Below, in pieces: positions 5,775-62,907 of a DNA stretch of 64,000 bases (position 1 is its first letter; every line of letters begins with the position of its first letter). The DNA comes from an uncultured Legionellales bacterium (GTDB lineage: Bacteria > Pseudomonadota > Gammaproteobacteria > Eutrophobiales > Eutrophobiaceae): positions 13,209 through 77,208 of the forward strand of contig CAJWQR010000002.1 in the NCBI GenBank assembly GCA_913045195.1, read 5' to 3'. Position numbers and translations under genes: made by a program. Under the pieces are notes generated by a model. That model worked only from the letters and a program-made list of their open reading frames with translations. It was not told where the DNA came from and made no database searches.

Positions 5775-6152
5775 ATGAAAAAAACAGCAATTAGTTTAGC
5801 TATTCTTCTTTTTGGTACGATGCCAAGCATGGCGTATGAATATCCAACAGAAGAAACCATTCGCTATGCACTCAATTGTATGACGACACTCGGCGGACAA
5901 ACGGATCAGAATCTTTATACTTGTTCATGTCGATACGATTCAATCAGAGAGGTTTTACCCTTCGATGATTATGCAGACGGGAAAACATACGAAAGAAATA
6001 GAGCAATGCCCGGCAAAAAAGGTGGCTTTTTTAGGGATAATGAGCGTGGCGAAGAATTATATGGTGTCTTGGTCAGTGCAAGAGAGCAAGCTGATGAACA
6101 GTGTATCGTCGTGAAACAAGTTCAAATGATAGAACCAACCAGCAGTGAATAG
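5775..6152 (+). CDS. Hypothetical small secreted Cys-containing protein
   Basis: 125 aa with a signal peptide (cleavage near SMA-YE) and 5 Cys residues. No family recognised. Confidence 0.35.
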   Translation: MKKTAISLAILLFGTMPSMAYEYPTEETIRYALNCMTTLGGQTDQNLYTCSCRYDSIREVLPFDDYADGKTYERNRAMPGKKGGFFRDNERGEELYGVLVSAREQADEQCIVVKQVQMIEPTSSE

Positions 6153-6211: not shown

Positions 6212-7072
6212 CTATGAGTCCAAAGATACCTTGTATGTATCACTGAACGCATTCTTTTTGGTATCTGTGCCTTTTACAAGCATAGTCCCTTCTTTTTCAG
6301 GGACGAAGTAGAAGCGTAAGGCAGGGTCCATACTGACAGAAAATGTTAACGATGCTTTAACGATAAGTTTCCCATTGTAGTTGATCTCAATACTATCGAC
6401 AAAAAAAGCGGGCGGTCTTACTCGTGAACCAATTTTTAACGGAGCCATACCAGTAATATTAGGATGACGTATTTTTAACTGCATCAAATTAGGTTTGCCA
6501 AGCACCAAATCGCCTACCACTTTCATTCTCATCTTTCCAAGTAACTTTTTTGACTCTTCGCTACCTGGCGGAGGTGGTGCAGAGCATGCCCCCTTTGCTT
6601 TTATAAAAGATTTTGTCATGTAAAGTTCACCGGTATTTAATTCAGCAATTGCACGTACATAATTATGAGCATCAACACGTATACGCAACGCTAAATCAGC
6701 TTTACCACTATCGGGCGTGAACTCAAAAGCGCCAACCAACGGAATCGGGTTCTTATCAATGAAGATATGCATTTTCTTTATATAGAGATCGTCCGTCTGT
6801 GGAATTTTAGTGTGTACCGAAATTGGAACAAAGCTTGCATCTTCTGCCAAAATCGGGGCTTTCAGTTCAAGAATTGTTTGTTCTGCACCCTCAATGATTT
6901 CTCTATCTTGGAAAAACTGTTTTCTAATATTTTTTTCCCAGGCTTGGTCAGATAAATTCTGTCTCCAAACAGTTGTGTCTCCGGTTGGCCGAAGATTCGC
7001 TGGAGCGACATCAGCTTGCGCAATTGAAGCAATTAGCAAACTAGTAATTACTGCTAAACTATGAATATTCAT
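6212..7072 (-). CDS. SoxY-SoxZ-like fused sulfur-carrier-type protein (quinoprotein-dehydrogenase-associated SoxYZ-like carrier)
   Basis: 286 aa with a signal peptide. The N-terminal half is SoxY-like and ends in a Cys-bearing swinging-arm-type motif (KAKGACSAPPPPG). The C-terminal half is SoxZ-like (IRHPNITGM...PPAFFVDSIEINYNGK). It is divergently placed next to xoxF. Confidence 0.65.
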   Translation of the reverse strand: MNIHSLAVITSLLIASIAQADVAPANLRPTGDTTVWRQNLSDQAWEKNIRKQFFQDREIIEGAEQTILELKAPILAEDASFVPISVHTKIPQTDDLYIKKMHIFIDKNPIPLVGAFEFTPDSGKADLALRIRVDAHNYVRAIAELNTGELYMTKSFIKAKGACSAPPPPGSEESKKLLGKMRMKVVGDLVLGKPNLMQLKIRHPNITGMAPLKIGSRVRPPAFFVDSIEINYNGKLIVKASLTFSVSMDPALRFYFVPEKEGTMLVKGTDTKKNAFSDTYKVSLDS

Positions 7073-7875
7073 AAAAACTCGCTATTATTTTCATACTTTC
7101 ATTCATATCGATTTTTTAATAATGTAGCTCCGATACTCATGATTATTATCAAAACTATTGATTATTACCAATATTTTCGTTATATATATTACACCAAAAT
7201 AAAGATAAAAATGTTTTATTAATTGGTCATTTTAGTAGCAATAATCCTGTAACGCAAAAATACGCAATAAAACCCAATAAAGCTCATAATCCTATGTATA
7301 GATATTGCCCAATATATTGTTTCTTATGGTAAAAAAAGACCTTGCAAGGGGCGGGAAAATTTCCTACACTCGCATCTGAAGTAATGAGTTTGATGAGCCG
7401 ATTAGGGCTGGGTTTTAAGGAATAAAAAACCCTTAAATTCTTCAATAAGAATTAAAGATTTTTCGGCATCAATAGTACTTACATAAAAAAATTGTTTTGA
7501 CATCTATTTTGATGATAACAATAAAAATAGTTGATGTAGTTTTTCTTTCTTAAAGTTTATATTTTTCGAAAGTTATTTGATAAAACTACCTCGATTGAAC
7601 TGTTAGGGAAAATCCTAATTTCACAAATGGGTAATAGGATTGATAAAACTTAAAAGCATGCGTCTTACTGCAAGTTATTTTTCTTTCTCTATGAGAGCGA
7701 TTAGCAAGTCTAGTCTTAAATTATTTATTCCCCTTTCAAAAGTTCAATCAATTTCTTCTCCATTACATTTACCGATTTTTAAAGCTCAATAGTTCTTTAT
7801 GATCTCGAGGAACTGCTGGGTTGTTTATCACATTATGAGATCACACATGATCAACCAATTATAGAGGAGGAGGTC

Positions 7876-9813
7876 ATGAGTAAATTATCATTAAAGAAAT
7901 GGCTCATAGCTATTTTAGCATTAGGGATTTCTGCATCAGTAGTTGCGAATGATGAAGTTCGTAAACTGAATGCTAACCCTAACTATTGGGCTTTTCCTGG
8001 TGGCGACTACAACAACTGGCGTTATACTGAGTTGAATCAAATCAACACAAAAAATGCTAGCAAGTTAGTTACTGCTTGGACTTTTTCAACTGGCCGTTTA
8101 CAAGGTCATGAAGGTGGACCATTAGTATTACCATCAAGCGCAACTGGCTTAGGTGGCGATACTCTTTATATCCATTCTTCATTCCCTAATGACGTTTTTG
8201 CTATCAGTTTGGATACGCTTGAAATCGTTTGGTATTTCGAGCCACAACAAGACGAAGCAGAAACCGTACCTGTAATGTGCTGCGATATTGTTAATCGCGG
8301 TTTAGGTTACAGTATGGGTCAAATTTATCTTCAACAAGCCGACACAACCTTGGTTGCGTTAGACGCTGGTACCGGTAAAGTAAACTGGACAGCAGAGAAT
8401 GGTCGTGATATCGGTTATGGTCCTGCTGCTGGTGATACCAATACCAACGCTCCACACCCAATTAAAGACAAAGTCTTTACTGGTTGTTCAGGTGCTGAGT
8501 TTGGTGTTCGTTGCTGGATGGCTGCTTTCAATGCGAAAGACGGTTCTCTTGCATGGCGTGCATTTAGCATGGGTCCAGACGAAGATATTCGTTTCGACGC
8601 TAACACCACTTCATTGGGCAAGAAAGTTGGCAAAAATTCTTCACTAAATTCTTGGTGTTCGAATGCTGACTGGAAGGCTCCATCTACTGGTCCTAACAAA
8701 TGTAGTGGACTAAGTGATGCATGGAAGTCTGGTGGTGGTTCAACTTGGGGTTGGTGGCCTGCTGACTTCGACGAAAACTTGATGTACTACGGAAATGGTA
8801 ACCCATCTACGTGGAACCCTGTTGTTCGTCCTGGAGACAACAAATGGTCAATGACTATATTCGCTCGTGATATCGATACCGGTGTTGCGCGTTGGGTATA
8901 TCAAATGACTCCACATGATGAGTGGGATTACGATGGTGTTAACGAAATGATCCTAGCTGACATTAAAGTTAAGGGTAAAATGACCAAAGCTTTAGTTCAC
9001 TTTGATCGTAACGGTTATGGATACACCATGAATCGTGTAAACGGTGCTTTACTTGTAGCTGAAAAGTATGACCCAGCTGTTAACTGGTCAACTCACGTTG
9101 ACATGAAGACGGGTTATCCTCAAACGCTTCCACAGTACTCAACTCATTTTAACGGTGAAGACGTAGTTTCAAAGGATATTTGTCCTGCAGCACTTGGTAC
9201 CAAGGATCAGCAGCCTGCTGCTTTCTCTCCACGTACCAATCTGTTCTATGTTCCAACTAACCACGTATGTATGACCTACGAACCAGTAAGTTATGCTGCA
9301 GGTGGTAACCAATACACAGCTGGTGCGGCTTATGTTAACGCTGCTCTAACTATGTATCCTGCTGGTGCTGTTTGCCCAGATTGTCCAAATAATAATAGTC
9401 AAAAGGACAACATGGGTAACTTCATCGCTTGGGATGCAGGTAAAGGTAAAATTGTTTGGAATATTGTCGAACAATGGTCTGTATGGTCTGGTGTTCTTAC
9501 CACAGCTGGCGATGTAGTGTTCTACGGAACTCTTGACGCTTATGCTAAGGCCGTTGATGCGAAGACTGGTAAATTGCTATGGAAGTTCAAAGCTCCATCA
9601 GGCATTATCGGCAACTTCAACTCTTGGGCTCACAAGGGTAAGCAATACGTTGGTGTTCTTTCGGGCATCGGCGGTTGGGCAGGTGCAGTTGTGTCTATTG
9701 AAGGCCTAGCTGCAGCTCCTGATGATGCTGCTCTTGGTGCTGTTGGTGGTTATCGTAAACTTCTCAATTCTTCACGTAATAGTGGCGTATTGATGGTGTT
9801 TAGCCTACCTTAA
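7876..9813 (+). CDS. xoxF: Lanthanide-dependent PQQ methanol dehydrogenase, XoxF type
   Basis: 645 aa with a signal peptide and an 8-bladed PQQ propeller. It carries the XoxF-diagnostic DYDG (WDYDGVNEM) lanthanide-ligand Asp in place of the MxaF Ala, and a vicinal Cys-Cys (VMCCD). Strong RBS GAGGAGGAGG. Confidence 0.9.
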   Translation: MSKLSLKKWLIAILALGISASVVANDEVRKLNANPNYWAFPGGDYNNWRYTELNQINTKNASKLVTAWTFSTGRLQGHEGGPLVLPSSATGLGGDTLYIHSSFPNDVFAISLDTLEIVWYFEPQQDEAETVPVMCCDIVNRGLGYSMGQIYLQQADTTLVALDAGTGKVNWTAENGRDIGYGPAAGDTNTNAPHPIKDKVFTGCSGAEFGVRCWMAAFNAKDGSLAWRAFSMGPDEDIRFDANTTSLGKKVGKNSSLNSWCSNADWKAPSTGPNKCSGLSDAWKSGGGSTWGWWPADFDENLMYYGNGNPSTWNPVVRPGDNKWSMTIFARDIDTGVARWVYQMTPHDEWDYDGVNEMILADIKVKGKMTKALVHFDRNGYGYTMNRVNGALLVAEKYDPAVNWSTHVDMKTGYPQTLPQYSTHFNGEDVVSKDICPAALGTKDQQPAAFSPRTNLFYVPTNHVCMTYEPVSYAAGGNQYTAGAAYVNAALTMYPAGAVCPDCPNNNSQKDNMGNFIAWDAGKGKIVWNIVEQWSVWSGVLTTAGDVVFYGTLDAYAKAVDAKTGKLLWKFKAPSGIIGNFNSWAHKGKQYVGVLSGIGGWAGAVVSIEGLAAAPDDAALGAVGGYRKLLNSSRNSGVLMVFSLP

Positions 9814-9839
9814 GCAATAAACAGACGTAAGTTTGTTAG

Positions 9840-9872
9840 ATCCCTGGTACTTCGGTATCAGGGATTTTTTTT
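9840..9872 (+). terminator. Rho-independent terminator after xoxF (11-bp stem with UUCG tetraloop plus T8)
   Basis: ATCCCTGGTAC-TTCG-GTATCAGGGAT followed by TTTTTTTT. Confidence 0.7.
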
Positions 9873-9982
9873 AGTGGTTTACGGTTTAATGTATTATTAT
9901 CAGAAAGTATTATTATAAAAAAATAATGAGAATATTTAGGTTCAATTAATAAGAACTTGTTCCAAATTATTAAGTCTTATAT

Positions 9983-10456
9983 ATGAAGATTAAAGGGGTG
10001 ATTGCAATGATAACAACACGATATATCGGAATAATTTTAAGCGCATTGGTGTATATGCTTCCAAATTTAGTTAATGCGGAAGAGCATATAGTGAATGCTG
10101 CTGCAAGAGAATTTAAGCCTGCTATTATTTATGTTCAGCCAGGCGATACTGTGAAATTTACTAATATGACCTCTCATAATTCTGTGACTTACTTAGTGCC
10201 TGAAGGCGGTACAGGTTGGGGTGAAAAAGGAAAAATGGCTGGCGGAACTTTCATAACACCAGCAATAGATGCAGAAGGTATTTATGGGTATGTTTGTGAA
10301 CCGCATATTGGTTTCGGAATGGTTGGGGTTGTCGTTGTTGGCGGTGTTAGTGCCGATGATAAAGCGGCAATGAAGGAAAGAGCGATGGCAGAGTTACAAG
10401 GCCCTTTTAAAAGACTTATTGGTAAAATTAATAAGATTAAACCGACATTAAAATAA
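9983..10456 (+). CDS. Pseudoazurin (type-1 blue copper protein / cupredoxin)
   Basis: Signal peptide. Contains PGDTVKF...SHN and GIYGYVCEPHIGFGMVGVVVVG, which give the Cu ligands His, Cys, His, Met with pseudoazurin spacing. Confidence 0.75.
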   Translation: MKIKGVIAMITTRYIGIILSALVYMLPNLVNAEEHIVNAAAREFKPAIIYVQPGDTVKFTNMTSHNSVTYLVPEGGTGWGEKGKMAGGTFITPAIDAEGIYGYVCEPHIGFGMVGVVVVGGVSADDKAAMKERAMAELQGPFKRLIGKINKIKPTLK

Positions 10457-42008: not shown

Positions 42009-42902
42009 TTGTTAATGGTATTAAAAAAAATGAAATACGATATTTGTTTTTTGCTTCTATCTGTAGTGTTAATTCATTCGGTTAATGCTGATCCAAGTAG
42101 TCTTCAATTAAATTGGGAGCTTGAGGGCCTAAGTAATCCAGAATCAGTTATCTATGATAAAAAACTTAATCATCTTTACATATCTAATGTTAATGGTTCA
42201 CCGGTTGAAAAAGATGGCAATGGTTTTATTTCGATTATTTCATTAGACGGAAAAATGATTCAAGAAAAATGGGTGATTGGATTGAATGCTCCGAAAGGGC
42301 TTGCGATTTTCGGTCGAACGTTATTCGTATCAGATATTGATGAATTGATTGCTATTGATATTGATAGCGGACGTGTTACTAATAGATTCAAAGTTAGTGA
42401 CGCAAAATTCTTAAATGATGTGGCGGTTAGTAGAAATGGTGATGTTTATGTTTCAGATATGGTGCTTAACAGAATTCATCGTTTAACTGAAGATAATTTT
42501 AGCGTATGGCTAGAAAATGAAAAATTAGAATCGCCTAATGGTTTGCTGGTTATAGGGGACGACATTATTCTTGGTAGTTGGGGTAAGATGACCGATGGAT
42601 TTGCCACTGAAATTCCAGGCCATTTAAAACGAATCTCGATTAAAGATAAAACTATTAAATCTATTGGTGATGGATCTTCAGTTGGAAACCTTGATGGAGT
42701 GGAAATGGATAACGATGGTGATTTCTATGTTACCGACTGGATGAATGGAAAATTACTGCACATAGAATATTCAGGGGAAGTATCAGTTTTATTGGATTTG
42801 CCACAAGGAAGCGCTGATCATGAATTTATTATTGAGAAAAGCCTAATTTTCATACCATTAATGATAGATAACAAACTACTTTCTTATACGGTTCAGCATT
42901 AG
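42009..42902 (+). CDS. Secreted six-bladed beta-propeller protein (SMP-30/gluconolactonase/NHL-like)
   Basis: 297 aa with a signal peptide. Repeated ...GLA/...VSD(I/M) strand motifs suggest a propeller. Family uncertain. Confidence 0.4.
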   Translation: MLMVLKKMKYDICFLLLSVVLIHSVNADPSSLQLNWELEGLSNPESVIYDKKLNHLYISNVNGSPVEKDGNGFISIISLDGKMIQEKWVIGLNAPKGLAIFGRTLFVSDIDELIAIDIDSGRVTNRFKVSDAKFLNDVAVSRNGDVYVSDMVLNRIHRLTEDNFSVWLENEKLESPNGLLVIGDDIILGSWGKMTDGFATEIPGHLKRISIKDKTIKSIGDGSSVGNLDGVEMDNDGDFYVTDWMNGKLLHIEYSGEVSVLLDLPQGSADHEFIIEKSLIFIPLMIDNKLLSYTVQH

Positions 42903-42907
42903 GTTAA

Positions 42908-44038
42908 ATGAAAATTCCATCAACGAATAAAAAAATAATTACATTAATTTTTCTATTTTCTCTTTTTAATTTTGTTTTTGCCGATGAGATTTATAGATCG
43001 GAAAAACATTCATTCTCAATCGAGACAGTAGTTGATGGATTAGAGTACCCGTGGTCAATGGAATTTGCTTCTGACGGAAAAATATTGATTACAGAACGTC
43101 CTGGCAGATTAAGAATCTTTGAGAATGGCGAATTGTCTGCCCCAGTAAAAGGGTTACCTAAAATCAAGAGCGAGGGACAAGGAGGGTTGCTAGATATTGC
43201 ACTCGATGCTGATTTTATCAATAACAAGATTCTTTTTCTTTCGTATACCGCTGGAAATTTTTCAGGAATTGGTACGGAGGTATCTTCAGCAAAATTAGTT
43301 AATAATCAACTGAGAGAACTCAAGCTTTTGTTCAAGGCTTTGCCAAAATCAAGGGGTGGCCGTCACTTTGGCTCACGTCTTTTGTTAACAAATGATAATA
43401 GTCTTTATATAACTTTGGGCGATCGCGGTGAAATGAAACGTGCTCAAAACATCAATGATCATGCAGGTTCGCTAATTCGAATTGGTAAAGACGGCGAAAT
43501 CCCTAACGATAATCCTTTTATTAAACGCTCAGACGCAAAAAAAGAAATCTATACTTATGGGAATCGTAATATTCAAGGTATAGCTTTAAATCCAGCGACA
43601 CATGATATTTGGACGGTTGAGCATGGCCCGCAAGGCGGAGATGAGCTTAATTTAATGAAGTCTGGCACTAATTATGGTTGGCCGGTTATCACTTATGGTG
43701 TTAATTATGGCACTGGCACCCAGATTGGCGAAGGAACTCATAAGGACGGAATGGTTCAACCTGTTTATTATTGGATACCTTCAATTGCGACATCAAGCCT
43801 ACTATTTTATAGCGGTAAAAAATTTCCCAACTGGAAGGAGAATATTTTTGTTAGTTCTTTAAAATTTGGCCAACTAGCCAGACTTGTAATGACTGACAAT
43901 ATTGTAATGATAGAGGAAAGACTGATAAATGGCGCTTTTGGCCGAATCAGAGAGATAAAAGAGGGGCCTGATGGGCTACTTTATATTCTTATAGACGACG
44001 CAAACGGTAAAATACTAAAACTTAAACCTGTTGAATAA
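42908..44038 (+). CDS. PQQ-dependent soluble sugar (glucose/sorbosone) dehydrogenase
   Basis: 376 aa with a signal peptide and the sGDH-family motifs (GLEYPWSMEF, HFGSRL, EHGPQGGDELN, NYGWPVITYG). Confidence 0.8.
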   Translation: MKIPSTNKKIITLIFLFSLFNFVFADEIYRSEKHSFSIETVVDGLEYPWSMEFASDGKILITERPGRLRIFENGELSAPVKGLPKIKSEGQGGLLDIALDADFINNKILFLSYTAGNFSGIGTEVSSAKLVNNQLRELKLLFKALPKSRGGRHFGSRLLLTNDNSLYITLGDRGEMKRAQNINDHAGSLIRIGKDGEIPNDNPFIKRSDAKKEIYTYGNRNIQGIALNPATHDIWTVEHGPQGGDELNLMKSGTNYGWPVITYGVNYGTGTQIGEGTHKDGMVQPVYYWIPSIATSSLLFYSGKKFPNWKENIFVSSLKFGQLARLVMTDNIVMIEERLINGAFGRIREIKEGPDGLLYILIDDANGKILKLKPVE

Positions 44039-45737: not shown

Positions 45738-46985
45738 TTATTTTAGTGTTGAATTTATAATTAATTTAGTTGTATTTCTTGAAGTTGTTGAAACTGCATC
45801 AACCACACCTATTATATCTCCTTTTTCAGATTTAGCATTACCACTTTTAGAGATTCTTGCCGAAACTTGAACAGACTTATAATCAGACAGCTTATTAGAT
45901 GGAAGCATAGACATTGAATCATCCATTTCCACCAATAATGGTAGGTCAGCGACTATTTTACGCAAAACAATAATTGGCATGTTGTTTGAGCCATGCATCG
46001 GTTTCGCATAGATAAATATTACATTATTTTTATCTATATCAGTAAAATTAGGTGATAATTCAATACTTAATTTAAGTGAGTATTCAGTTTCTTCTTGCGT
46101 AATCGAATTATTGTTTTGAATTGAAATATTATTATTTTCTTTAGCAAATTGTATATATTTTCTTATATTTTTTTCTTCCTCGGATCCTATTTCTAATTTA
46201 GGCAGCACATTTTGCCAATAATTAATGGCCTTATTTATTTTGCCCTCTTCGTAAGCCACTAGACCGGCTAGCCAAAGGCCCATTGTATTTTGAGGATCTA
46301 ACTGTAGTGCTTTTTTGATTAGTTCAGAGGGCTTACCAGCAAAAATTCCAGAATTTGCCATGGCTAAAACATCTGCATATCGAAATAAAAGTAACGGATC
46401 ATCGCCTTTTAGACGGTATAGATTGTCAAACGCCCTAATTGCTTCAGGATAGCGTTTGAGTACAACATAAGAATTAGCCAACATTAACCAATCATCGCTA
46501 TTATTCGGATCATCAAGCAATCGTTTTTCAACACGGTTTAGCATTTGCTTCACAGAAACTAGTTTTTCGTTATTGTTTTTTGTATTTTTTAAGTCTGAAA
46601 CTAGGACTAATTTTTCTATTGAATTAGGATGACCAATAAAACTGTATACAGATATAACAAAAACAGGAATAACCAATACAAGAATTACCGAAATAGTTTT
46701 TTTTGATTTTAGATTTGAGAAGTATAGTTTTGAGTTTAGTATATCTATATTTTTATTATCCTTAATTAATGAATGTTCTAATTCCTTGGTAGTATTGTTG
46801 GCTTCATTTTCTGTAATTAAGTGATTTTCAATATCGAAATTAATCTCATTTAACTTTTGATTATAGATGTCCATACTATTTTGATTAGAATTTATTCCCT
46901 CATTATTTTTTTTCAACAATGTTTTTATTATCACAATAATAGATATTAGCAATAAAGATGATGCTGATAGTAAGAATAAAGTCAT
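45738..46985 (-). CDS. ccmI: Cytochrome c-type biogenesis protein CcmI (TPR-containing)
   Basis: 415 aa. N-terminal TM segments and C-terminal TPR-like repeats. Terminal position in the ccm operon. Confidence 0.6.
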   Translation of the reverse strand: MTLFLLSASSLLLISIIVIIKTLLKKNNEGINSNQNSMDIYNQKLNEINFDIENHLITENEANNTTKELEHSLIKDNKNIDILNSKLYFSNLKSKKTISVILVLVIPVFVISVYSFIGHPNSIEKLVLVSDLKNTKNNNEKLVSVKQMLNRVEKRLLDDPNNSDDWLMLANSYVVLKRYPEAIRAFDNLYRLKGDDPLLLFRYADVLAMANSGIFAGKPSELIKKALQLDPQNTMGLWLAGLVAYEEGKINKAINYWQNVLPKLEIGSEEEKNIRKYIQFAKENNNISIQNNNSITQEETEYSLKLSIELSPNFTDIDKNNVIFIYAKPMHGSNNMPIIVLRKIVADLPLLVEMDDSMSMLPSNKLSDYKSVQVSARISKSGNAKSEKGDIIGVVDAVSTTSRNTTKLIINSTLK

Positions 46986-47037
46986 TAGTTTTTTTTATAT
47001 TTATTTATAATTATTTGAAATAATTTTGTCTTAGTGA

Positions 47038-47454
47038 TTAATTATCAATAGTATTATTTTGAGATTGTTTTTTTATAAAAATGATTGCTGTGGTTATGGC
47101 TATTATTAAAAATAGAAAAGGGCCAAACCAGAGCAACCAAGTATTATCATTTAAGGGGGGGCGATACAGAACAAAGTCACCATATCGCTCTACTAGGAAT
47201 TCTGTAATCTGATTATTACTCTTTTCTGATTTAATCATTTTAAAAATTTCATTCCTTAAATCTTGGGCTAGCGGAGCATTAGAATCAGCAAGCGATTGGT
47301 TTTGACAAACTAAACATCTAATTTCTTCAATTAGTAAATAGTAGCGTTGTTCCTGATTTTTATCGGTAAAATATACAGGCTCATCATTTGGATAACTTTT
47401 ATGTGTAGTGAGTATGACTAAAGCGAACACTATAGATTGATATAATATTTTCAT
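47038..47454 (-). CDS. ccmH: Cytochrome c-type biogenesis protein CcmH
   Basis: 138 aa with a signal peptide, the LRCLVCQNQS CxxC motif and a C-terminal TM. Confidence 0.8.
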   Translation of the reverse strand: MKILYQSIVFALVILTTHKSYPNDEPVYFTDKNQEQRYYLLIEEIRCLVCQNQSLADSNAPLAQDLRNEIFKMIKSEKSNNQITEFLVERYGDFVLYRPPLNDNTWLLWFGPFLFLIIAITTAIIFIKKQSQNNTIDN

Positions 47455-47456
47455 AA

Positions 47457-47987
47457 TTATTTTTCTTGTTCTAATTCTTTTATGAGCGGCATAATAATAT
47501 CATCAAGCTGCCTTTTATCAATTGGGCCAATATGTTTGTAGCGAATAACCCCTTTTTTATCAAGAAGGAATGTTTCTGGCACACCATAAACACCATAATC
47601 TATACCAGTATTTCCATACTCATCGTATGCGCTTTCTATATATGGATTTCCTAAGTTCTCAAGCCATATAAGCGCATTAGTTCTTTTATCTTTATAGTTA
47701 AGCCCATACAGAGTTAGGTGATATTTTTTTACTGCTTCATTAAGTACGGAGTGCTCAAGCCGGCATGCTATACACCAGGAAGCCCATACATTTATTAGCG
47801 ATACTGTGCCTTTGATATCATTTATACTAATATTAGATTCTGGGTTATGAAGGGTCGGCAGAGTAAATTTAGGAGCTATTTTATTTATTAGTGGTGAGGG
47901 AACATATCTCGGATCATTTTGTAGTCCATAAATAAATAGTACTGTGAGTCCAATAAAAATTGTAAGCGGAAATAGATAACGGATCAT
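47457..47987 (-). CDS. ccmG: Thiol:disulfide interchange protein DsbE/CcmG
   Basis: 176 aa with an N-terminal anchor and a thioredoxin fold carrying WASWCIACR. Confidence 0.85.
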   Translation of the reverse strand: MIRYLFPLTIFIGLTVLFIYGLQNDPRYVPSPLINKIAPKFTLPTLHNPESNISINDIKGTVSLINVWASWCIACRLEHSVLNEAVKKYHLTLYGLNYKDKRTNALIWLENLGNPYIESAYDEYGNTGIDYGVYGVPETFLLDKKGVIRYKHIGPIDKRQLDDIIMPLIKELEQEK

Positions 47988-47992
47988 TTAAT

Positions 47993-49966
47993 TTATGGGA
48001 TAGCTTCATTATTGATAGTAATTATTTTCTTTTTTAATATTCTTAGGCGATAACGCTTATCTAAAACAGCTAACAAACCTCCAATTGCCATTAATATTGC
48101 ACCAAGCCATATCCAGCGCACAAAGGGTTTGTGGTAAAGTCTCACGCTCCAAGATTCATTATCTAGCGGCTCACCTAAAGCCATATAAATATCTCTAGTA
48201 AATCCCGCGTCTATTCCTGCTTCCGTCATAGGCATGTTACGAACAGTATAGGTTCTTTTTTGCGAGCGAAGCGTTGTAATAAGACTTTCGTTTTTTATTA
48301 CATCAACGATTGCTTCAGTTGCTTCATAGTTTGGTCCCGATACTGCCTTTAAGTCTTTAAGATGAAATTGGTAATTAGAGAATTCAATAACATCACCAAT
48401 TTTCATACGTTGATGAATATCGACACTATGTTGACTCGTTATAGTTATTCCCACAATACAAACCGCAAAACCTATATGAGCAACTAACATTCCATAGAAA
48501 CTACGGGAAATAATTCGCATTGCTGCGAGTTTATTTTTTTTATTTTTTATCTTAACGAATAATGAATAAAGACTAGTAGTACTTATCCATAAGGCAGCAA
48601 CGATTCCCGCAATGCTTTTTAATTGATTATTCTCAAAGAATATTAATCCTATACTGATACCAATGAATAAACTTGCAATTAATAAATTACGTAATTGTTT
48701 TAGTAATAATGAAAAGTCGTCTTGTTTCCATTTTGTAAGAACTCCCAACCCAAGGAATATTATGAGTGGGGCCATTATTGGAACAAATACCGCATTAAAG
48801 TAGGGGGCACCTACAGATAATTTACCAAGATTAAGTGCTTCTATAATCAAAGGATAAATAGTTCCAAGCAGTACTGTTAACATTGCCACTAGAAATAAAA
48901 TACTATTAAATAGCAGAAATGTTTCACGAGATAATAATTTGAACTTGCCTCCGCTTTTGGTTGATGGCGCACGAAATGCATAAAGCACTAGTGAACCACC
49001 AACAAAGATTGCTAATAAGGCAAGAATAAAAATTCCACGTGTTGGATCTGTCGCAAATGCATGAACTGAAGTTATCACACCTGAACGCACCAAGAACGTG
49101 CCTAATAAACTAAGCGCAAATGCACAAATAGCGAGAAGAATCGTCCAATTTTTAAAAATTTCTCTTTTGTCTGTTGCGGCAAGCGAATGAATTAATGCGG
49201 TTCCAATTAGCCAGGGCATAAACGATGCATTTTCAACAGGGTCCCAAAACCACCAACCACCCCAACCTAATTCATAGTAAGCCCACCAACTACCTAGTGC
49301 GATCCCTATTGTTAGGAATATCCAGGCAAGTAATGTCCATGGCCGAGACCATCTAGCCCAGGTTGTATCTAAATTACCCCCCAATAAAGCAGCTATAGCA
49401 AAGCCAAAGGCCACAGAAAACCCCACATACCCCATATATAATATTGGCGGGTGAATAATCAATCCGGGGTCTTGTAATAGTGGATTTAAATCTGCACCAT
49501 CTAATGGAATAGGGAAGATGCGCTCAAAGGGATTAGAAGTGAATAGCATAAAAAGTAGAAAACCAATACTTACCAATCCCATCACCCCAATAACACGAGA
49601 TAAAAAATATTCAGGTAAGCGATGACTAAAATAAGTCACAGCTATTGTCCAAATACTCAAAATTAATATCCATAATAATAAAGAGCCTTCATGTGCGCCC
49701 CACACAGCTGAAAATCGATATATCCAGGGAAGGAGTGTATTTGAGTTATTAGCGACATAAGATATAGAAAAATCATTAATTAGAAATGAATAAACTAAAA
49801 TTCCAAAAGAAATAGACACAAATAGAAATTGTAGACGTGCCGCAGGCCGGGCTAACGACATGTATGTTAGATTTCCCATGGCTGCACCCATAATTGGAAA
49901 GGTACTTTGTATGATTGCCATCGCCAAAGCTAAAACTAATGAGAAGTGTCCTAATTCTGCTATCAT
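47993..49966 (-). CDS. ccmF: Cytochrome c-type biogenesis protein CcmF (haem lyase)
   Basis: 657 aa polytopic membrane protein with a WGGWWFWDPVEN Trp-rich motif. Confidence 0.9.
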   Translation of the reverse strand: MIAELGHFSLVLALAMAIIQSTFPIMGAAMGNLTYMSLARPAARLQFLFVSISFGILVYSFLINDFSISYVANNSNTLLPWIYRFSAVWGAHEGSLLLWILILSIWTIAVTYFSHRLPEYFLSRVIGVMGLVSIGFLLFMLFTSNPFERIFPIPLDGADLNPLLQDPGLIIHPPILYMGYVGFSVAFGFAIAALLGGNLDTTWARWSRPWTLLAWIFLTIGIALGSWWAYYELGWGGWWFWDPVENASFMPWLIGTALIHSLAATDKREIFKNWTILLAICAFALSLLGTFLVRSGVITSVHAFATDPTRGIFILALLAIFVGGSLVLYAFRAPSTKSGGKFKLLSRETFLLFNSILFLVAMLTVLLGTIYPLIIEALNLGKLSVGAPYFNAVFVPIMAPLIIFLGLGVLTKWKQDDFSLLLKQLRNLLIASLFIGISIGLIFFENNQLKSIAGIVAALWISTTSLYSLFVKIKNKKNKLAAMRIISRSFYGMLVAHIGFAVCIVGITITSQHSVDIHQRMKIGDVIEFSNYQFHLKDLKAVSGPNYEATEAIVDVIKNESLITTLRSQKRTYTVRNMPMTEAGIDAGFTRDIYMALGEPLDNESWSVRLYHKPFVRWIWLGAILMAIGGLLAVLDKRYRLRILKKKIITINNEAIP

Positions 49967-50421
49967 TTAGCTACTTTATTTTCTTGATAGGGATTTAGAG
50001 CGCCTGCATCTTCAAGAGCTTTTGCTACTTCCGGTGGCATATAATTTTCATCATGCTTAGCTAATACTTCATCAGCAACGAAGACATTGTCAGGCTTCAT
50101 TTTTCCATTAGCAACTATACCCTGACCCTCGCGAAATAGGTCAGGAAGAATTCCATCATATATTACTTTAATTTCATTAACTGTATCAGTTAGTACAAAA
50201 GTAACTTTAAGATCATTAGGATTTCGTTTAACACTATTGGTTAATACTAGTCCGCCAATACGAAATGCACGGACTTTTGGCGCTTCGCCATTAGCAATTT
50301 CTGTTGGGCTATAAAAGTACATTAAATTTTCTTCAAATGCTGTCAAAATTAATGTTGCAGCAATACTTATACCAATTAGAATGAAACTAACAATAAGTAT
50401 ACGTTTTTTTCTCGAAGTCAT
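49963..50421 (-). CDS. ccmE: Cytochrome c-type biogenesis haem chaperone CcmE
   Basis: 152 aa with an N-terminal anchor and the conserved haem-binding region ...VLAKHDENYMPPE. Confidence 0.85.
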   Translation of the reverse strand: MTSRKKRILIVSFILIGISIAATLILTAFEENLMYFYSPTEIANGEAPKVRAFRIGGLVLTNSVKRNPNDLKVTFVLTDTVNEIKVIYDGILPDLFREGQGIVANGKMKPDNVFVADEVLAKHDENYMPPEVAKALEDAGALNPYQENKVAK

Positions 50422-50433
50422 TGTTATTTATGC

Positions 50434-50586
50434 TTACTCTTTAATCTTTTTTAATTCATCTATTGTTTTGCGTTCATTTCTAATGGCCAGATAAATATTT
50501 AGAAATAGAACAATGAAGCTAATACCGTATGCCGACCAAACATAAGCTGCGTAACCGCCCATTGAGAAAAAATTATTTAATATCAT
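50434..50586 (-). CDS. ccmD: Haem exporter protein CcmD (50 aa; below ORF-track size cut-off)
   Basis: Minus-strand ORF MILNNFFSMGGYAAYVWSAYGISFIVLFLNIYLAIRNERKTIDELKKIKE with a single TM. It sits exactly between ccmC and ccmE. Confidence 0.6.
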   Translation of the reverse strand: MILNNFFSMGGYAAYVWSAYGISFIVLFLNIYLAIRNERKTIDELKKIKE

Positions 50587-50591
50587 ATATT

Positions 50592-51326
50592 TTAATTACC
50601 TAATATTTTTTTTACCCATGAAGAATTACATTCATATTTAAGTATTTCACTTCTTGTCTTAATCAGAACTGTCGTAATGTAAAAAGTTTTAAATGCTATT
50701 ACCATTAATATTAAAGGGATTAACATAGTGAAATGAATTGAGGGTTTGTCTAACTTTGTAATTGTTGGGCCCTGATGTAGTGTGCTCCACCATTCGACTG
50801 AATAATGAATTATCGGTATATTTATTATACCTATTAATGCAAGTACTGCTCCTGCGCGTGCCGCAATTCTTTTATCATCAAAAGCTGATTGTAGTGCCAT
50901 ATAGCCTAGATATAAAAATAACAATATTAGTTCTGACGTTAATCTTGCATCCCATACCCAGTAGGTACCCCACATAGGCTTTCCCCAGATAGCGCCTGTC
51001 GATAAGGCTAAAAAAGTATATGATGCGCCAATTGGCGCGCTAACTCTTGCTATGATATCTGAAATCTTAATGTGCCAAATAAGACTAATTGCGCCTGAAG
51101 CGGCAAGGACTATATATATAAAAAGAGACATCCATGCAGCAGGCACATGCACATAAATAATTCTAAAACTATCTCCTTGTTGATAATCTGCTGGCGCTAA
51201 AACTAGGCCTCCATAAAGCCCACTTATAAAGCAAACAATGCAGACAATAGTGACCCATTTAGATAAGCATAAGGAAATATCATAAAAATATTTAGGTGAG
51301 CCAAATTGATGAATCCACTTGTACAT
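50592..51326 (-). CDS. ccmC: Haem exporter protein CcmC
   Basis: 244 aa membrane protein with the WGxxWxWD motif (GKPMWGTYWVWDARL). Confidence 0.85.
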   Translation of the reverse strand: MYKWIHQFGSPKYFYDISLCLSKWVTIVCIVCFISGLYGGLVLAPADYQQGDSFRIIYVHVPAAWMSLFIYIVLAASGAISLIWHIKISDIIARVSAPIGASYTFLALSTGAIWGKPMWGTYWVWDARLTSELILLFLYLGYMALQSAFDDKRIAARAGAVLALIGIINIPIIHYSVEWWSTLHQGPTITKLDKPSIHFTMLIPLILMVIAFKTFYITTVLIKTRSEILKYECNSSWVKKILGN

Positions 51327-51330
51327 TTTA

Positions 51331-52005
51331 TTAACTTAATCGTATTCTCAAAGCAGCAGCGGTTGCTAATGGCGCTAAGGTGATTGTTAGTACAAGTATA
51401 CCGGCTAGAAAATAGACCTCGGCAATCATGGATTGGTTTGATGCTGCATTTTGTATTGCAACTGTAGAAAAAATAAGAACAGGCATTGATAAAGGCAGAA
51501 TCAAAAGATTAAGTAGCATACCACCACGTAAACCAATTGTTAAGGCAACCATAACAGATCCAAGGAGACTTAAGATTGGCGTTCCAAGAATCAATGTAAT
51601 GAAAAGCGCCATTATTATTTCATTTGATAATGAAAGAAGTATACCCATCAGTAATGAAATTATTATTAGAGGTATACCAAATGTTATCCAATGTGCAAAT
51701 ATTTTTGCCGACACAAGTAATGTAAGAGGATAGCGAGATAAAGTTAGTTGCTCGATGCTGCCGTCTTCAAAATCAGAACGAAAAATCGTTTCAAGCGTTA
51801 GACAGGTTGCTAATAAAGCGCTAATCCAGATCATTCCAGGTATTATTTCATTTACTATTGTTGATTTTGTGCCGAAGGATAATGGGAATAGCGTAATGAC
51901 AATAATAAAAAAAAATAATGAATTAATAAAATCTGTTTTATCTCGAAAAGCGAGAATTAGATCACGCCTTAAAATAACATTAAAAATATTTATATATTCA
52001 GACAT
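51331..52005 (-). CDS. ccmB: Haem exporter permease CcmB
   Basis: 224 aa, 6-TM ABC-2-type permease. Position in the operon. Confidence 0.8.
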   Translation of the reverse strand: MSEYINIFNVILRRDLILAFRDKTDFINSLFFFIIVITLFPLSFGTKSTIVNEIIPGMIWISALLATCLTLETIFRSDFEDGSIEQLTLSRYPLTLLVSAKIFAHWITFGIPLIIISLLMGILLSLSNEIIMALFITLILGTPILSLLGSVMVALTIGLRGGMLLNLLILPLSMPVLIFSTVAIQNAASNQSMIAEVYFLAGILVLTITLAPLATAAALRIRLS

Positions 52006-52627
52006 TATTATTTCCTAGATTAATGCTTTGTAATGGACGACCATTAATTTCCATTCTTTGGTGCGTAGTAAAGATAGTTATCCCACCATTATCGCAATGA
52101 CTAATAATTAAATTTTCAATTATTTTTTTTCCTTCTTTATCTAATGCATTAAACGGTTCATCAAGGAACCATAATTTTGACTTTGCCATAAATAATCTTA
52201 TAAGTCCTAAACGTCTTTTTTGTCCAGCAGACATATTGTATGCAAATATTTTGTTCATGCCCGACATACCAATTTTTTTAAGAATTGCAGAATAATTAAT
52301 TTTTGATTTTGATCCTGTTAAAGAATGAATAATTGTCATATTTTCTTCTACAGTTAACGTTGCTTTTATGGCATTAGCATGACCAATATATAAAATATTA
52401 CTTTGGAACTCATAACGCTGTTGATTAATATTTATATTATTCCATAATACTTCACCAGTGGTTATCTGTATTAGTCCAGCACAAATCTGTAATAAACTAC
52501 TTTTTCCACTGCCGTTTGCACCGTTAATCTGAAGTAACGCGCCATCTTCCATAGTCAGGCTCAGCCCTTTAAATAGAATATTATTTTGGCGGACGCATTC
52601 AAGATTATTGATACTAAATTTCGACAT
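51998..52627 (-). CDS. ccmA: Haem exporter ATP-binding protein CcmA
   Basis: 209 aa ABC ATPase with Walker A GANGSGKSSLL, the signature LSAGQKRR and Walker B LWFLDEP. Confidence 0.85.
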   Translation of the reverse strand: MSKFSINNLECVRQNNILFKGLSLTMEDGALLQINGANGSGKSSLLQICAGLIQITTGEVLWNNININQQRYEFQSNILYIGHANAIKATLTVEENMTIIHSLTGSKSKINYSAILKKIGMSGMNKIFAYNMSAGQKRRLGLIRLFMAKSKLWFLDEPFNALDKEGKKIIENLIISHCDNGGITIFTTHQRMEINGRPLQSINLGNNNV

Positions 52628-60837: not shown

Positions 60838-62907
60838 ATGTCGTCTCCAAGTTATTTTGTTTTATTTATATTCGTATATTTTATTTCTTATAATACTTTT
60901 GCTGTGAATCTAAAACGATTTGAAGGGTTGATTGTCAATGGTACAAGATTAAATCAAAATAATATTGAGGATTTACCATTAAATATTTCCATTATAACCG
61001 CTGAAGAAATTAAATTAAGTTCAGCACAAACACTCCCCGAGTTACTTTCACAGGAACCAGGTATTCAGAAAAGTAGTCAATTTGGTAATCATGCCGTTAG
61101 AAGCGATATTGACATTCGGGGGTTTGGAGCAAGAGGCACTCAAAATACGTTAATTTTATTGGATGGCAAACGTCTTAACGATAATGATCAATCGACAATT
61201 AATTTTAGTGCCATACCGATGGAGAATATTGAGAGAATAGAGATTATAAAAAGTGCAGGCGGTGTGCTCTACGGCGATGGCGCAGTAGGTGGCGCTATTA
61301 ATATCATTACCAAAACACCATCTTATAAAACTAAGAAATATTTAATTGAGCAAAGAGTGGGTTCGTACGATTCAATCAAGACAGATGTGGCAGCTGAATA
61401 CAGTAACGAGAAAATTTCACTTAATCTCTTTAGTAATCTTATTCATTCAGATGGTTATCGAGTTAATAATAAATTAGAGCAACGGTCTTTATCTACAAAT
61501 TTCAGTTATTTTATTAGCAATACAGAAATATTTCTAAAATTTGGAATATCTGAGCAAAATTTAAGACTTCCTGGTGATAGGGCGGTTAATTTTGTTACAG
61601 GTGTAGATGAATTTTCTTCTGATAGGAAAGGAACAGATGACCCGTTTGATTTTGCTATCGAAGTGGGATCTTTCTTAACGTTAGGCTTCATACATTCTTT
61701 TGCAGATAATATCGAATTACTAGTAGATGGCGGATATAAAACCAAAGAAAGCGATATTTTTGTAGAGAATAGCCAAGAATTTCGAAATACAAATCATGCA
61801 AATCTATATTTTAGCCCCCAGCTAAAATGGAAATTTGACTTATTTCATAGTGAACACAATATTGATATAGGCTTTGATCTTTACCATTATCAGTTTGATT
61901 TAGATATCGAAAATACCACCGCAGCTGATACAAATCATGTGATAGTTCAACCACAGCATAGACTTGATATCGAACAGGAAAACTATTCATTTTATTTAAA
62001 TGATTTTGTCAATATAAACCCTAACACTTCATTCCAGGTAGGAGCTCGTATACAACATAGCAATGTAGATGCATTTGATCAGTTTGATTCGACTGCTAGA
62101 ACTGCTGGTTTCGCGAGCAGCCAAAGGCCTTCACTTAATAAATCGGACAAAGGGTATATGGCTAACTTTGGAATTAAACAGCGGTTTAATCGAAATATTT
62201 CTGGCTATGTAACAACAGGTCAAAGTATGCGTTTTGCAAATAATGATGATTTTAATCAATTAGACGCAACTTTTGCGCCTAGTTTTTCTAATATAAAACC
62301 ACAGCGCGGCAGATATTTTGATGGTGGGGTTATATATTCTAGCGAATATCTTAATACTTCGCTGAGCGTATATTTAATGGAAATGACAAATCAAATTGAT
62401 TTTGATCCAGCACGTTCTACAAATAGAAATTTTGAACCAATTAAAAGAGAGGGGCTAGAGTATAGTATTTTACTTAAACCCACTGACGAAATTACAACAA
62501 ATTTTAATTATGCCTTAACTAAAGCAGTTTTTGATGAAGGATTAAATAAAGGCAATGACGTTCCACTTGTTGCGAAACATACAGCAAATTTTATTTTTAA
62601 TTATAATCTGTTTAGGAGTATGAATTTATCGGCAACATGGAATTATGTTGGAGATAAAGTTTTTGATAATGATCAGGATAATACATTTTTTGCCAAAATT
62701 CCTTCGCACTCGTCCATTGATATGAAATTGGGTTATGAGCGAGGTAATTTTGATGTAAATTTTTCAGTTAACAATTTGTTAAATAAAGAATATTTCGAGA
62801 CCGGAACCACTAATAGCCTGCTTTTTGATACCGCACATACGCGATTTAATGCATCACCCATGCCAGAGAGAAACTTTTCATTTACAATACGATATAAGTT
62901 TGACTAA
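60838..62907 (+). CDS. TonB-dependent outer-membrane receptor (BtuB-like, B12-riboswitch controlled)
   Basis: 689 aa with a signal peptide, a TonB-box / plug domain (DLPLNISIITAEEI) and a 22-strand barrel ending in the terminal aromatic ...IRYKFD. Confidence 0.8.
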   Translation: MSSPSYFVLFIFVYFISYNTFAVNLKRFEGLIVNGTRLNQNNIEDLPLNISIITAEEIKLSSAQTLPELLSQEPGIQKSSQFGNHAVRSDIDIRGFGARGTQNTLILLDGKRLNDNDQSTINFSAIPMENIERIEIIKSAGGVLYGDGAVGGAINIITKTPSYKTKKYLIEQRVGSYDSIKTDVAAEYSNEKISLNLFSNLIHSDGYRVNNKLEQRSLSTNFSYFISNTEIFLKFGISEQNLRLPGDRAVNFVTGVDEFSSDRKGTDDPFDFAIEVGSFLTLGFIHSFADNIELLVDGGYKTKESDIFVENSQEFRNTNHANLYFSPQLKWKFDLFHSEHNIDIGFDLYHYQFDLDIENTTAADTNHVIVQPQHRLDIEQENYSFYLNDFVNINPNTSFQVGARIQHSNVDAFDQFDSTARTAGFASSQRPSLNKSDKGYMANFGIKQRFNRNISGYVTTGQSMRFANNDDFNQLDATFAPSFSNIKPQRGRYFDGGVIYSSEYLNTSLSVYLMEMTNQIDFDPARSTNRNFEPIKREGLEYSILLKPTDEITTNFNYALTKAVFDEGLNKGNDVPLVAKHTANFIFNYNLFRSMNLSATWNYVGDKVFDNDQDNTFFAKIPSHSSIDMKLGYERGNFDVNFSVNNLLNKEYFETGTTNSLLFDTAHTRFNASPMPERNFSFTIRYKFD

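Follow-up and report, generated by a model that had tools for sequence, protein, structure and literature searches.

A pseudoazurin-family copper protein in the xoxG position of a methanol dehydrogenase cluster is a candidate electron acceptor for a clade of XoxF enzymes

Which protein takes up the electrons of a lanthanide-type methanol dehydrogenase when a gene for a copper protein stands where that of its cytochrome partner is usually found? The question is raised by a 64-kb stretch of contig CAJWQR010000002.1, from an uncultured gammaproteobacterium of low G+C content (~36%). The whole stretch is referred to here as the window, and all coordinates are window positions unless a locus is named. 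In it, a gene for a pseudoazurin-like cupredoxin lies between xoxF, which encodes a pyrroloquinoline quinone (PQQ)-dependent methanol dehydrogenase, and xoxJ, which encodes an XoxF accessory protein. To our knowledge, the methanol dehydrogenase acceptors described so far are all c-type cytochromes, namely MxaG, XoxG1-4 and the verrucomicrobial cGJ. In published work the acceptors of XoxF are all treated as cytochromes, with some regarded as unresolved (PMC6277846, PMC5874918, PMC5723320, PMC11845868), and those of some XoxF enzymes were described as 'not apparent' (PMC6277846). No description of a cupredoxin in an xoxF cluster was found in the searchable full-text literature; subscription papers lay outside this search, and a prior mention is possible.

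The cupredoxin and its neighbouring dehydrogenase

The initial annotation of this DNA had placed a pseudoazurin between xoxF and xoxJ, had read type-1 copper ligands in its SHN and CEPHIGFGM motifs and had reported that the cluster is without a c-type cytochrome gene. The gene order was confirmed (open reading frame (ORF) 9983-10456, forward strand), and the four ligands (H57, C97, H100 and M105 in the numbering of the 148-aa protein) proved invariant in an alignment of 46 sequences of 29-82% identity; they also align with the copper ligands of the structures 3tu6 and 9m62. The statement on cytochromes holds for the entire 64 kb, as a CxxCH scan of the whole window revealed no real ORF with the motif and a profile built from 21 XoxG proteins of related loci gave no match in it. 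This search covers the 64-kb window, as distinct from the rest of the genome.

Assignment of the ORF to the pseudoazurins was supported by both sequence and predicted structure. It matched Pfam PF00127 with 42.1 bits (cutoff 21.2), and its best NCBIfam model was the pseudoazurin model TIGR02375, at 65.5 bits; since this is under the equivalog cutoff of 109.85, the protein belongs to a divergent subfamily of the pseudoazurin fold and is not an NCBI 'equivalog'. Its best relatives of solved structure are pseudoazurins (3tu6, E 7e-14). An AlphaFold2 model computed from 46 homologues (pLDDT 91.1) has a beta-sandwich followed by C-terminal helices at residues 116-129 and 132-142, and a Foldseek search of the PDB with this model returned pseudoazurins for all of the top 26 hits (target-normalised TM 0.64-0.77), with plastocyanins next. 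In its fold, in the pair of C-terminal helices and in the order of its ligands (His / Cys-x2-His-x4-Met), the protein agrees with the canonical pseudoazurins of A. faecalis, A. cycloclastes, Paracoccus, S. meliloti and M. extorquens AM1 (1PMY); it differs from them in an identity of only 23-36%, in its sub-cutoff TIGR02375 score and in a genomic partner that is XoxF rather than nitrite reductase. With a single Cys and no CxxCH motif, this cupredoxin is outside the XoxG / cytochrome cL family.

The ATG at 10007 is most likely the true start of the gene, because a conserved Shine-Dalgarno sequence AAAGGGGTG lies ahead of it (9992-10000), the homologues are 146-148 aa long, the N-terminal extension of the longest ORF is not conserved and a protein begun here has a typical signal peptide. 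Cleavage of the signal peptide is predicted at ...VNA/EEH. Codon differences to the homologous gene of locus L001 are mainly synonymous (56 synonymous against 25 non-synonymous), which indicates purifying selection on the pseudoazurin gene. The best explanation of these sequence features and of the model is that the product carries electrons in the periplasm as a pseudoazurin-family protein with a type-1 copper site, and it may work like XoxG.

The dehydrogenase encoded upstream matched TIGR03075 (methanol/ethanol PQQ dehydrogenase) with 615.9 bits (cutoff 480). Among solved structures it comes closest to two XoxF5 enzymes, that of Methylomicrobium buryatense (6DAM) with 742 bits and that of M. 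extorquens (6OC5) with 707 bits, and its scores against MxaF, at about 518 bits, are well below these. Alignment with 6DAM located the lanthanide-binding Asp of the DYD motif in PHDEWDYDG and the vicinal Cys-Cys pair in VPVMCCD. By its sequence, this is a lanthanide-type XoxF of a distinct XoxF5-related clade. All members of the main clade described in the following section carry an insertion, PSSATGLG, at residues 86-93 (window 8131-8154). Further insertions were seen at CSNADWKAPSTGPNKCSG (8656-8709) and at CPDCPNNNS (~9370-9400), and the paired Cys in both of these suggests extra disulfides. The insertions were considered as markers of pseudoazurin docking and rejected, since PSSATGLG is missing from the pseudoazurin-type XoxF of Vibrionaceae and is found in clade members without a pseudoazurin.

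Pseudoazurin and xoxG across related loci

A scan of the genome collection for XoxF provided 80 loci from different species, in which the genes around xoxF were classed by phmmer, a CxxCH scan and two profiles. Sixteen loci carried a pseudoazurin only, 48 carried xoxG only and 16 carried neither, while none carried both; the one-sided Fisher p for this exclusion is 2e-8 (without phylogenetic correction). The xoxG-type loci have a mono-haem cytochrome of 140-200 aa, encoded 10-250 nt downstream of xoxF and upstream of xoxJ. The pseudoazurin of the pseudoazurin-type loci (genome set and window) is encoded 130-360 nt downstream of xoxF, and it also precedes xoxJ. The XoxG profile found no match in any pseudoazurin-type locus and matched in 48 other loci, and no XoxG-like gene was found within 6-10 kb in about 30 pseudoazurin-type or same-clade loci. 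Measured against a canonical xoxFGJ cluster, the window thus has xoxJ downstream and lacks the adjacent c-type cytochrome.

In a neighbour-joining tree of XoxF, 13 of the pseudoazurin-type loci from the genome scan formed one clade together with the window and its marine relatives. Within this main clade xoxG is never nearby and a pseudoazurin is usually present. The clade is sister to methanotroph-type XoxF5 loci (Methylococcaceae, L068 and L082), which are also without an adjacent cytochrome. A second pseudoazurin-type group, made up of three Vibrionaceae loci (Grimontia hollisae and two Enterovibrio species), falls among xoxG-type enzymes in the tree. An XoxF5 of Grimontia marina is listed as La-Nd dependent in a review (PMC11845868, which cites Huang et al. 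2019).

The major branches of the XoxF tree recur in that of the pseudoazurins. A separate XoxF-linked pseudoazurin family is not claimed here, since canonical pseudoazurins nest inside the XoxF-linked sequences in a crude neighbour-joining tree of 80 columns. The association was also examined in the reciprocal direction, starting from four distant homologues of the pseudoazurin (36-59% identity) on contigs of 0.67-4.9 Mb. In all four loci a PQQ dehydrogenase gene stood on one side of the pseudoazurin gene and an xoxJ-position gene on the other, the latter being recognisable as SBP_bac_3 in three of the four.

Close homologues of the pseudoazurin (76-96% identity) are numerous in marine metagenomes, where contigs keep the gene order over 20 kb; one cluster of close homologues by itself was recorded on 145 contigs, some of them from Tara Oceans assemblies. 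A profile search detected at least 2024 related proteins. In a profile search of the representative library 105 proteins were found at E <= 1e-30, many of which are multi-domain cupredoxin repeats, so that this number is no measure of the size of the XoxF-linked subfamily.

In some XoxF-linked pseudoazurins a lipobox is present and the N-terminus is extended by ~60-100 residues, most of which form a Pro/Ala/Ser-rich tether (L020, 3058-3726 of that locus; L026). In L026 two pseudoazurin genes stand in tandem, one encoding a tethered and one a soluble form (8004-8651 and 8824-9291 of that locus), and the representative library also contains pseudoazurin forms of 200-230 aa. Tethered homologues, as predicted from these sequences, are what would be expected if the carrier hands its electrons on to a complex in the membrane.

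Altogether, a functional coupling of the pseudoazurin to the XoxF system is strongly supported by the comparison of loci. The best reading of the position itself is that XoxG would have been replaced in place by a non-orthologous copper carrier of the pseudoazurin family, because the two proteins share a slot, exclude one another strictly, and the copper protein has an intact electron-transfer site and is conserved and co-diverging with XoxF across the clade.

Transcription units and neighbouring genes

The pseudoazurin gene and xoxJ had been described in the initial annotation as a separate transcription unit, on the grounds of a strong UUCG-tetraloop terminator after xoxF. The terminator is present as described: the segment 9838-9875 has a stem of 13 pairs, a UUCG loop and a U8 tail, with a dG of -25.5 kcal/mol and z = -4.7, and the stem is kept in close relatives through compensatory changes. 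An Rfam scan of 7000-10100 gave only a sub-threshold match, located on the terminator hairpins. The argument drawn from the terminator is weak, however. A crude scan found a hairpin with a U-tract after xoxF in 15/18 pseudoazurin-type loci and also in 22/44 xoxG-type loci, and the terminator was therefore rejected as evidence of functional separation. It has the appearance of a widespread means of ending, or attenuating, the abundant transcript of xoxF.

A separate unit is nonetheless plausible because of a conserved motif between the terminator and the pseudoazurin gene that resembles promoters of extracytoplasmic function (ECF) sigma factors. A consensus scan for sigma-70 promoters found no site in this interval. 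The motif, GAACTT-N15-GTCTTA, resembles the sigmaE/ECF consensus GGAACTT-N16-TCNNA, and it occurs once in the window against 0.09 expected. Its AGAACTT and GTC..A parts are invariant in six relatives, while the spacer around them has diverged. A looser form, GAAC[TC][TA]-N15-17-TCNNA, follows xoxF in 10/18 pseudoazurin-type and 0/44 xoxG-type loci, with a background of 0.02 per 400 nt; two more loci from this XoxF clade have it as well, and it occurs at very different G+C contents. The pseudoazurin gene, xoxJ and orf272 thus probably form an operon driven by a predicted ECF sigma factor from this putative promoter, as a unit separate from xoxF.

Upstream of xoxF, repeated and inverted ATGATC/GAGATC elements (ATGATCTCGAGG ... 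GAGATCACACATGATCA) were observed on the forward strand at 7799-7853. They are invariant in six relatives and directly precede the very strong xoxF Shine-Dalgarno sequence AGAGGAGGAGG; they could be an operator or a 5'-UTR structure. The G+C fraction is 0.43 in the xoxF segment (8001-10000) and 0.33-0.37 around it.

Several companions of xoxF complete the locus (Table 1). The xoxJ product matched TIGR03871 with 229 bits (cutoff 212), and its top PDB match is XoxJ 6ONP (E 1.7e-34). The SoxYZ-like protein, separated from xoxF by an 800-nt spacer, scored 220.7 bits (cutoff 140) against TIGR04557, the 'quinoprotein dehydrogenase-associated SoxYZ-like carrier'. Homologues of orf125 are encoded near xoxF in most of the 80 related loci, in pseudoazurin-type and xoxG-type clusters alike. 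The product of orf272 had no match in Pfam, NCBIfam or PDB sequences; its homologues follow xoxJ in most pseudoazurin-type loci and in some xoxG-type loci.

Downstream of the xox genes, the segment 12193-34448 encodes FdsA/B of an NAD-linked formate dehydrogenase, a GltD-like flavoprotein and a ferredoxin, and also holds fhcCDAB with an FwdD-like gene, mch, fae and genes for tetrahydromethanopterin (H4MPT) and methanofuran biosynthesis, including pabB. Given the formate dehydrogenase, fhc, mch, fae and H4MPT genes, the locus is an island for the oxidation of methanol to CO2. Genes for PQQ biosynthesis (pqq) were not seen in the window. A TonB-dependent receptor is encoded close to the window's end, and a role in lanthanide or PQQ uptake would fit its context.

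Table 1. Positions of features of the xox locus and of the wider window
Feature	Position	Strand	Remarks
orf125, small secreted protein with four Cys	5775..6152	+	no match in Pfam, NCBIfam or PDB; conserved alongside xoxF
Fused SoxY-SoxZ-like carrier	6212..7072	-	TIGR04557, PF13501, PF08770; divergent from xoxF
xoxF, PQQ methanol dehydrogenase, 645 aa	7876..9813	+	TIGR03075; CC and DYD motifs
Two hairpins after the xoxF stop	9820..9875	+	the second is an intrinsic terminator, 9838-9867 plus U8
ECF/sigmaE-like motif GAACTT-N15-GTCTTA, putative promoter	9953..9979	+	upstream of the pseudoazurin gene
Pseudoazurin-like type-1 copper protein, 148 aa	10007..10456	+	longest ORF (157 aa) from 9983; Sec-type signal peptide
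xoxJ, periplasmic binding-protein-like XoxF accessory, 286 aa	10495..11355	+	probable start ~10519; TIGR03871
orf272, secreted, 272 aa	11366..12184	+	third gene of the putative pseudoazurin-xoxJ operon
Soluble glucose/sorbosone dehydrogenase-type PQQ enzyme	42009-44038	+	PF07995, 412 bits; adjoins an SMP-30/NHL beta-propeller protein
ccmABCDEFGH operon, complete	45738-52627	-	ccmA, B, C, E, F, thioredoxin-like CcmG, CcmH, CcmI/CycH
TonB-dependent receptor	60838-62907	+	near window end

Candidate electron acceptors of XoxF

The arrangement has partial counterparts in several known systems. The xoxF-xoxG-xoxJ clusters, such as that of Methylorubrum extorquens AM1, also have an XoxF5-type enzyme, xoxJ and a gene for a small periplasmic one-electron carrier between the two, and the SoxYZ-like carrier, orf125 and orf272 accompany many of them. 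They differ from the present cluster in that its carrier is a type-1 copper protein without CxxCH and no XoxG-like gene is present, in that its XoxF belongs to a separate clade with its own insertions, and in the ECF-like motif, which is absent from the xoxG-type loci.

Copper and haem carriers are interchangeable in a single electron-transfer step in the pairs plastocyanin / cytochrome c6 and pseudoazurin / cytochrome c550; in those cases, both carriers are usually present in one genome and are switched by metal supply, whereas here the proposed replacement is fixed at the locus. A quinoprotein alcohol dehydrogenase has also been linked to a cupredoxin, since the azurin of Pseudomonas putida HK5 reportedly accepts electrons from the quinohaemoprotein ADH IIB. 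There, the electrons leave through the haem c domain of ADH IIB itself, whereas XoxF has no haem domain, and the pseudoazurin would therefore take its electrons directly from the reduced cofactor, PQQH2. The closest functional analogy is provided by the mau cluster, in which a cupredoxin, amicyanin, is likewise encoded within the cluster of a periplasmic C1 quinoprotein dehydrogenase. Amicyanin is the dedicated acceptor of this enzyme, methylamine dehydrogenase (PMC12723479). The cofactor of that enzyme is tryptophan tryptophylquinone (TTQ), in contrast to PQQ with a lanthanide here, and the role of amicyanin was proven biochemically whereas that of the pseudoazurin is a proposal. Amicyanin also belongs to a different cupredoxin subfamily, and ranked 39th in the fold search, well below the pseudoazurins.

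The initial annotation had proposed that a copper protein serves this XoxF as its physiological electron acceptor, or else as an alternative one when Cu is replete. Conserved synteny, the exclusion of xoxG, the reciprocal placement in 4/4 cases and the matching trees sustain the first of these proposals as far as functional coupling and occupation of the xoxG slot are concerned; for the direct transfer of electrons, comparative genomics leads us to lean slightly towards the pseudoazurin as the acceptor. We consider the odds to be about even for the broader claim that the whole of this environmentally abundant XoxF clade uses a dedicated pseudoazurin as its direct physiological acceptor, made from an ECF-sigma-controlled operon. 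In the proposed scheme, XoxF, with Ln3+ and PQQ, would oxidise methanol to formaldehyde in the periplasm, and Cu(II)-pseudoazurin would re-oxidise PQQH2 in two one-electron steps. The reduced pseudoazurin may then pass electrons to a membrane respiratory complex, either to a terminal oxidase directly or through another carrier, and the formaldehyde would be oxidised onward through the H4MPT pathway encoded next to the xox genes and through the NAD-linked formate dehydrogenase. Transcription of the pseudoazurin gene, xoxJ and orf272 would start at their own ECF-sigma-type promoter, downstream of the terminator or attenuator of the xoxF transcript. Pseudoazurins have potentials of roughly +230 to +280 mV, similar to those of cytochrome cL and higher than those of XoxG, which makes the protein suitable as an acceptor for PQQH2. 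No oxidase or reductase gene was seen in the window as a target for the pseudoazurin.

Several observations weigh against the pseudoazurin as the direct acceptor. Five full-length loci of the same clade (L012, L018, L019, L025 and L022, the last from the cultured methylotroph Methylohalomonas lacus) have neither a pseudoazurin nor xoxG within 6 kb, and the pseudoazurin is therefore not obligatory at this position; the contig of a sixth locus, L015, is truncated and does not allow a judgement. Perhaps no more than two independent events in evolution lie behind the exclusion statistic. XoxF and the pseudoazurin (mature pI 5.5 and 8.1, respectively) were compared for charge complementarity, which was discarded as a usable signal, as the net charge of the pseudoazurins varies widely in the family (pI 4.8-9.6) and offers no indication of docking. 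The window also encodes a complete ccm operon, so that the organism makes c-type cytochromes and the missing xoxG is not explained by an inability to make them; with this full system, a cytochrome acceptor encoded elsewhere is feasible. Furthermore, in the nearest characterised XoxF5 systems, those of Methylococcaceae, no cytochrome gene adjoins xoxF and the enzymes use XoxG4, which is unlinked (PMC5723320, PMC5874918).

These points bear most on the possibility that an unlinked c-type cytochrome, XoxG4-like or other, is the primary acceptor of XoxF, with the pseudoazurin acting downstream of it, as an analogue of cytochrome cH, or as a parallel, conditional carrier in a copper-for-iron switch like that of plastocyanin and cytochrome c6. 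Both the ccm operon and the same-clade loci devoid of a pseudoazurin would suit such an arrangement, as would the fact that the sister-group enzymes (L068, L082) and the XoxF5 of the best PDB match (6DAM), the enzymes closest to the XoxF of the window, are served by XoxG4 (PMC5723320, PMC5874918). XoxG4 also illustrates that XoxF acceptors are diverse and have repeatedly been replaced (PMC5723320, PMC5874918). It is a c-type cytochrome encoded away from xoxF, however, whereas the copper-protein candidate is encoded beside xoxF, exactly in the xoxG position and never alongside xoxG, a slot that a gene of the cytochrome cH type does not normally occupy. Together with the lack of a c-type cytochrome gene in the 64 kb and of XoxG-like genes within 6-10 kb of the ~30 loci, this leads us to regard an unlinked primary acceptor as rather unlikely, though as the most serious of the alternatives.

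An accessory, non-respiratory role, such as copper handling or keeping the SoxYZ-like carrier or the vicinal Cys-Cys disulfide in the proper redox state, appears improbable to us. The cluster does contain several accessory proteins (the SoxYZ-like carrier, orf125, orf272 and xoxJ), and the pseudoazurin gene is predicted to be co-transcribed with xoxJ and not with xoxF; yet the other accessory genes occur in both types of cluster while the pseudoazurin specifically excludes xoxG, and the protein retains a classic type-1 site in the fold of known soluble carriers. All characterised pseudoazurins serve denitrification enzymes or peroxidases (PMC12423496), and the nesting of canonical pseudoazurins within the XoxF-linked sequences of the crude tree would likewise agree with an ordinary denitrification carrier, one that donates electrons to nitrite or nitrous oxide reductase and adjoins xoxF by accident. 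Chance adjacency is very hard to reconcile with a synteny kept from 29% to 95% identity in two XoxF groups and many taxa and with the 4/4 reciprocal placements, and no denitrification genes were seen in the window; we therefore give this explanation very little credence.

A copper carrier fixed in the xoxG position provides a concrete and testable acceptor candidate for a large XoxF clade, and the cultured Grimontia and Enterovibrio strains with the same arrangement would offer a tractable system. If the pseudoazurin does accept the electrons of XoxF, no PQQ methanol dehydrogenase before this one would have been coupled to copper in place of haem c, and a PQQ enzyme would join the short list of quinoproteins served by cupredoxins. 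Copper carriers would then also come into question as acceptors for other gammaproteobacterial XoxF5 enzymes, where the acceptor is still under debate. For the bacteria themselves, lanthanide-dependent methanol oxidation would be tied to the supply of copper rather than iron, which would be relevant in iron-poor seawater.

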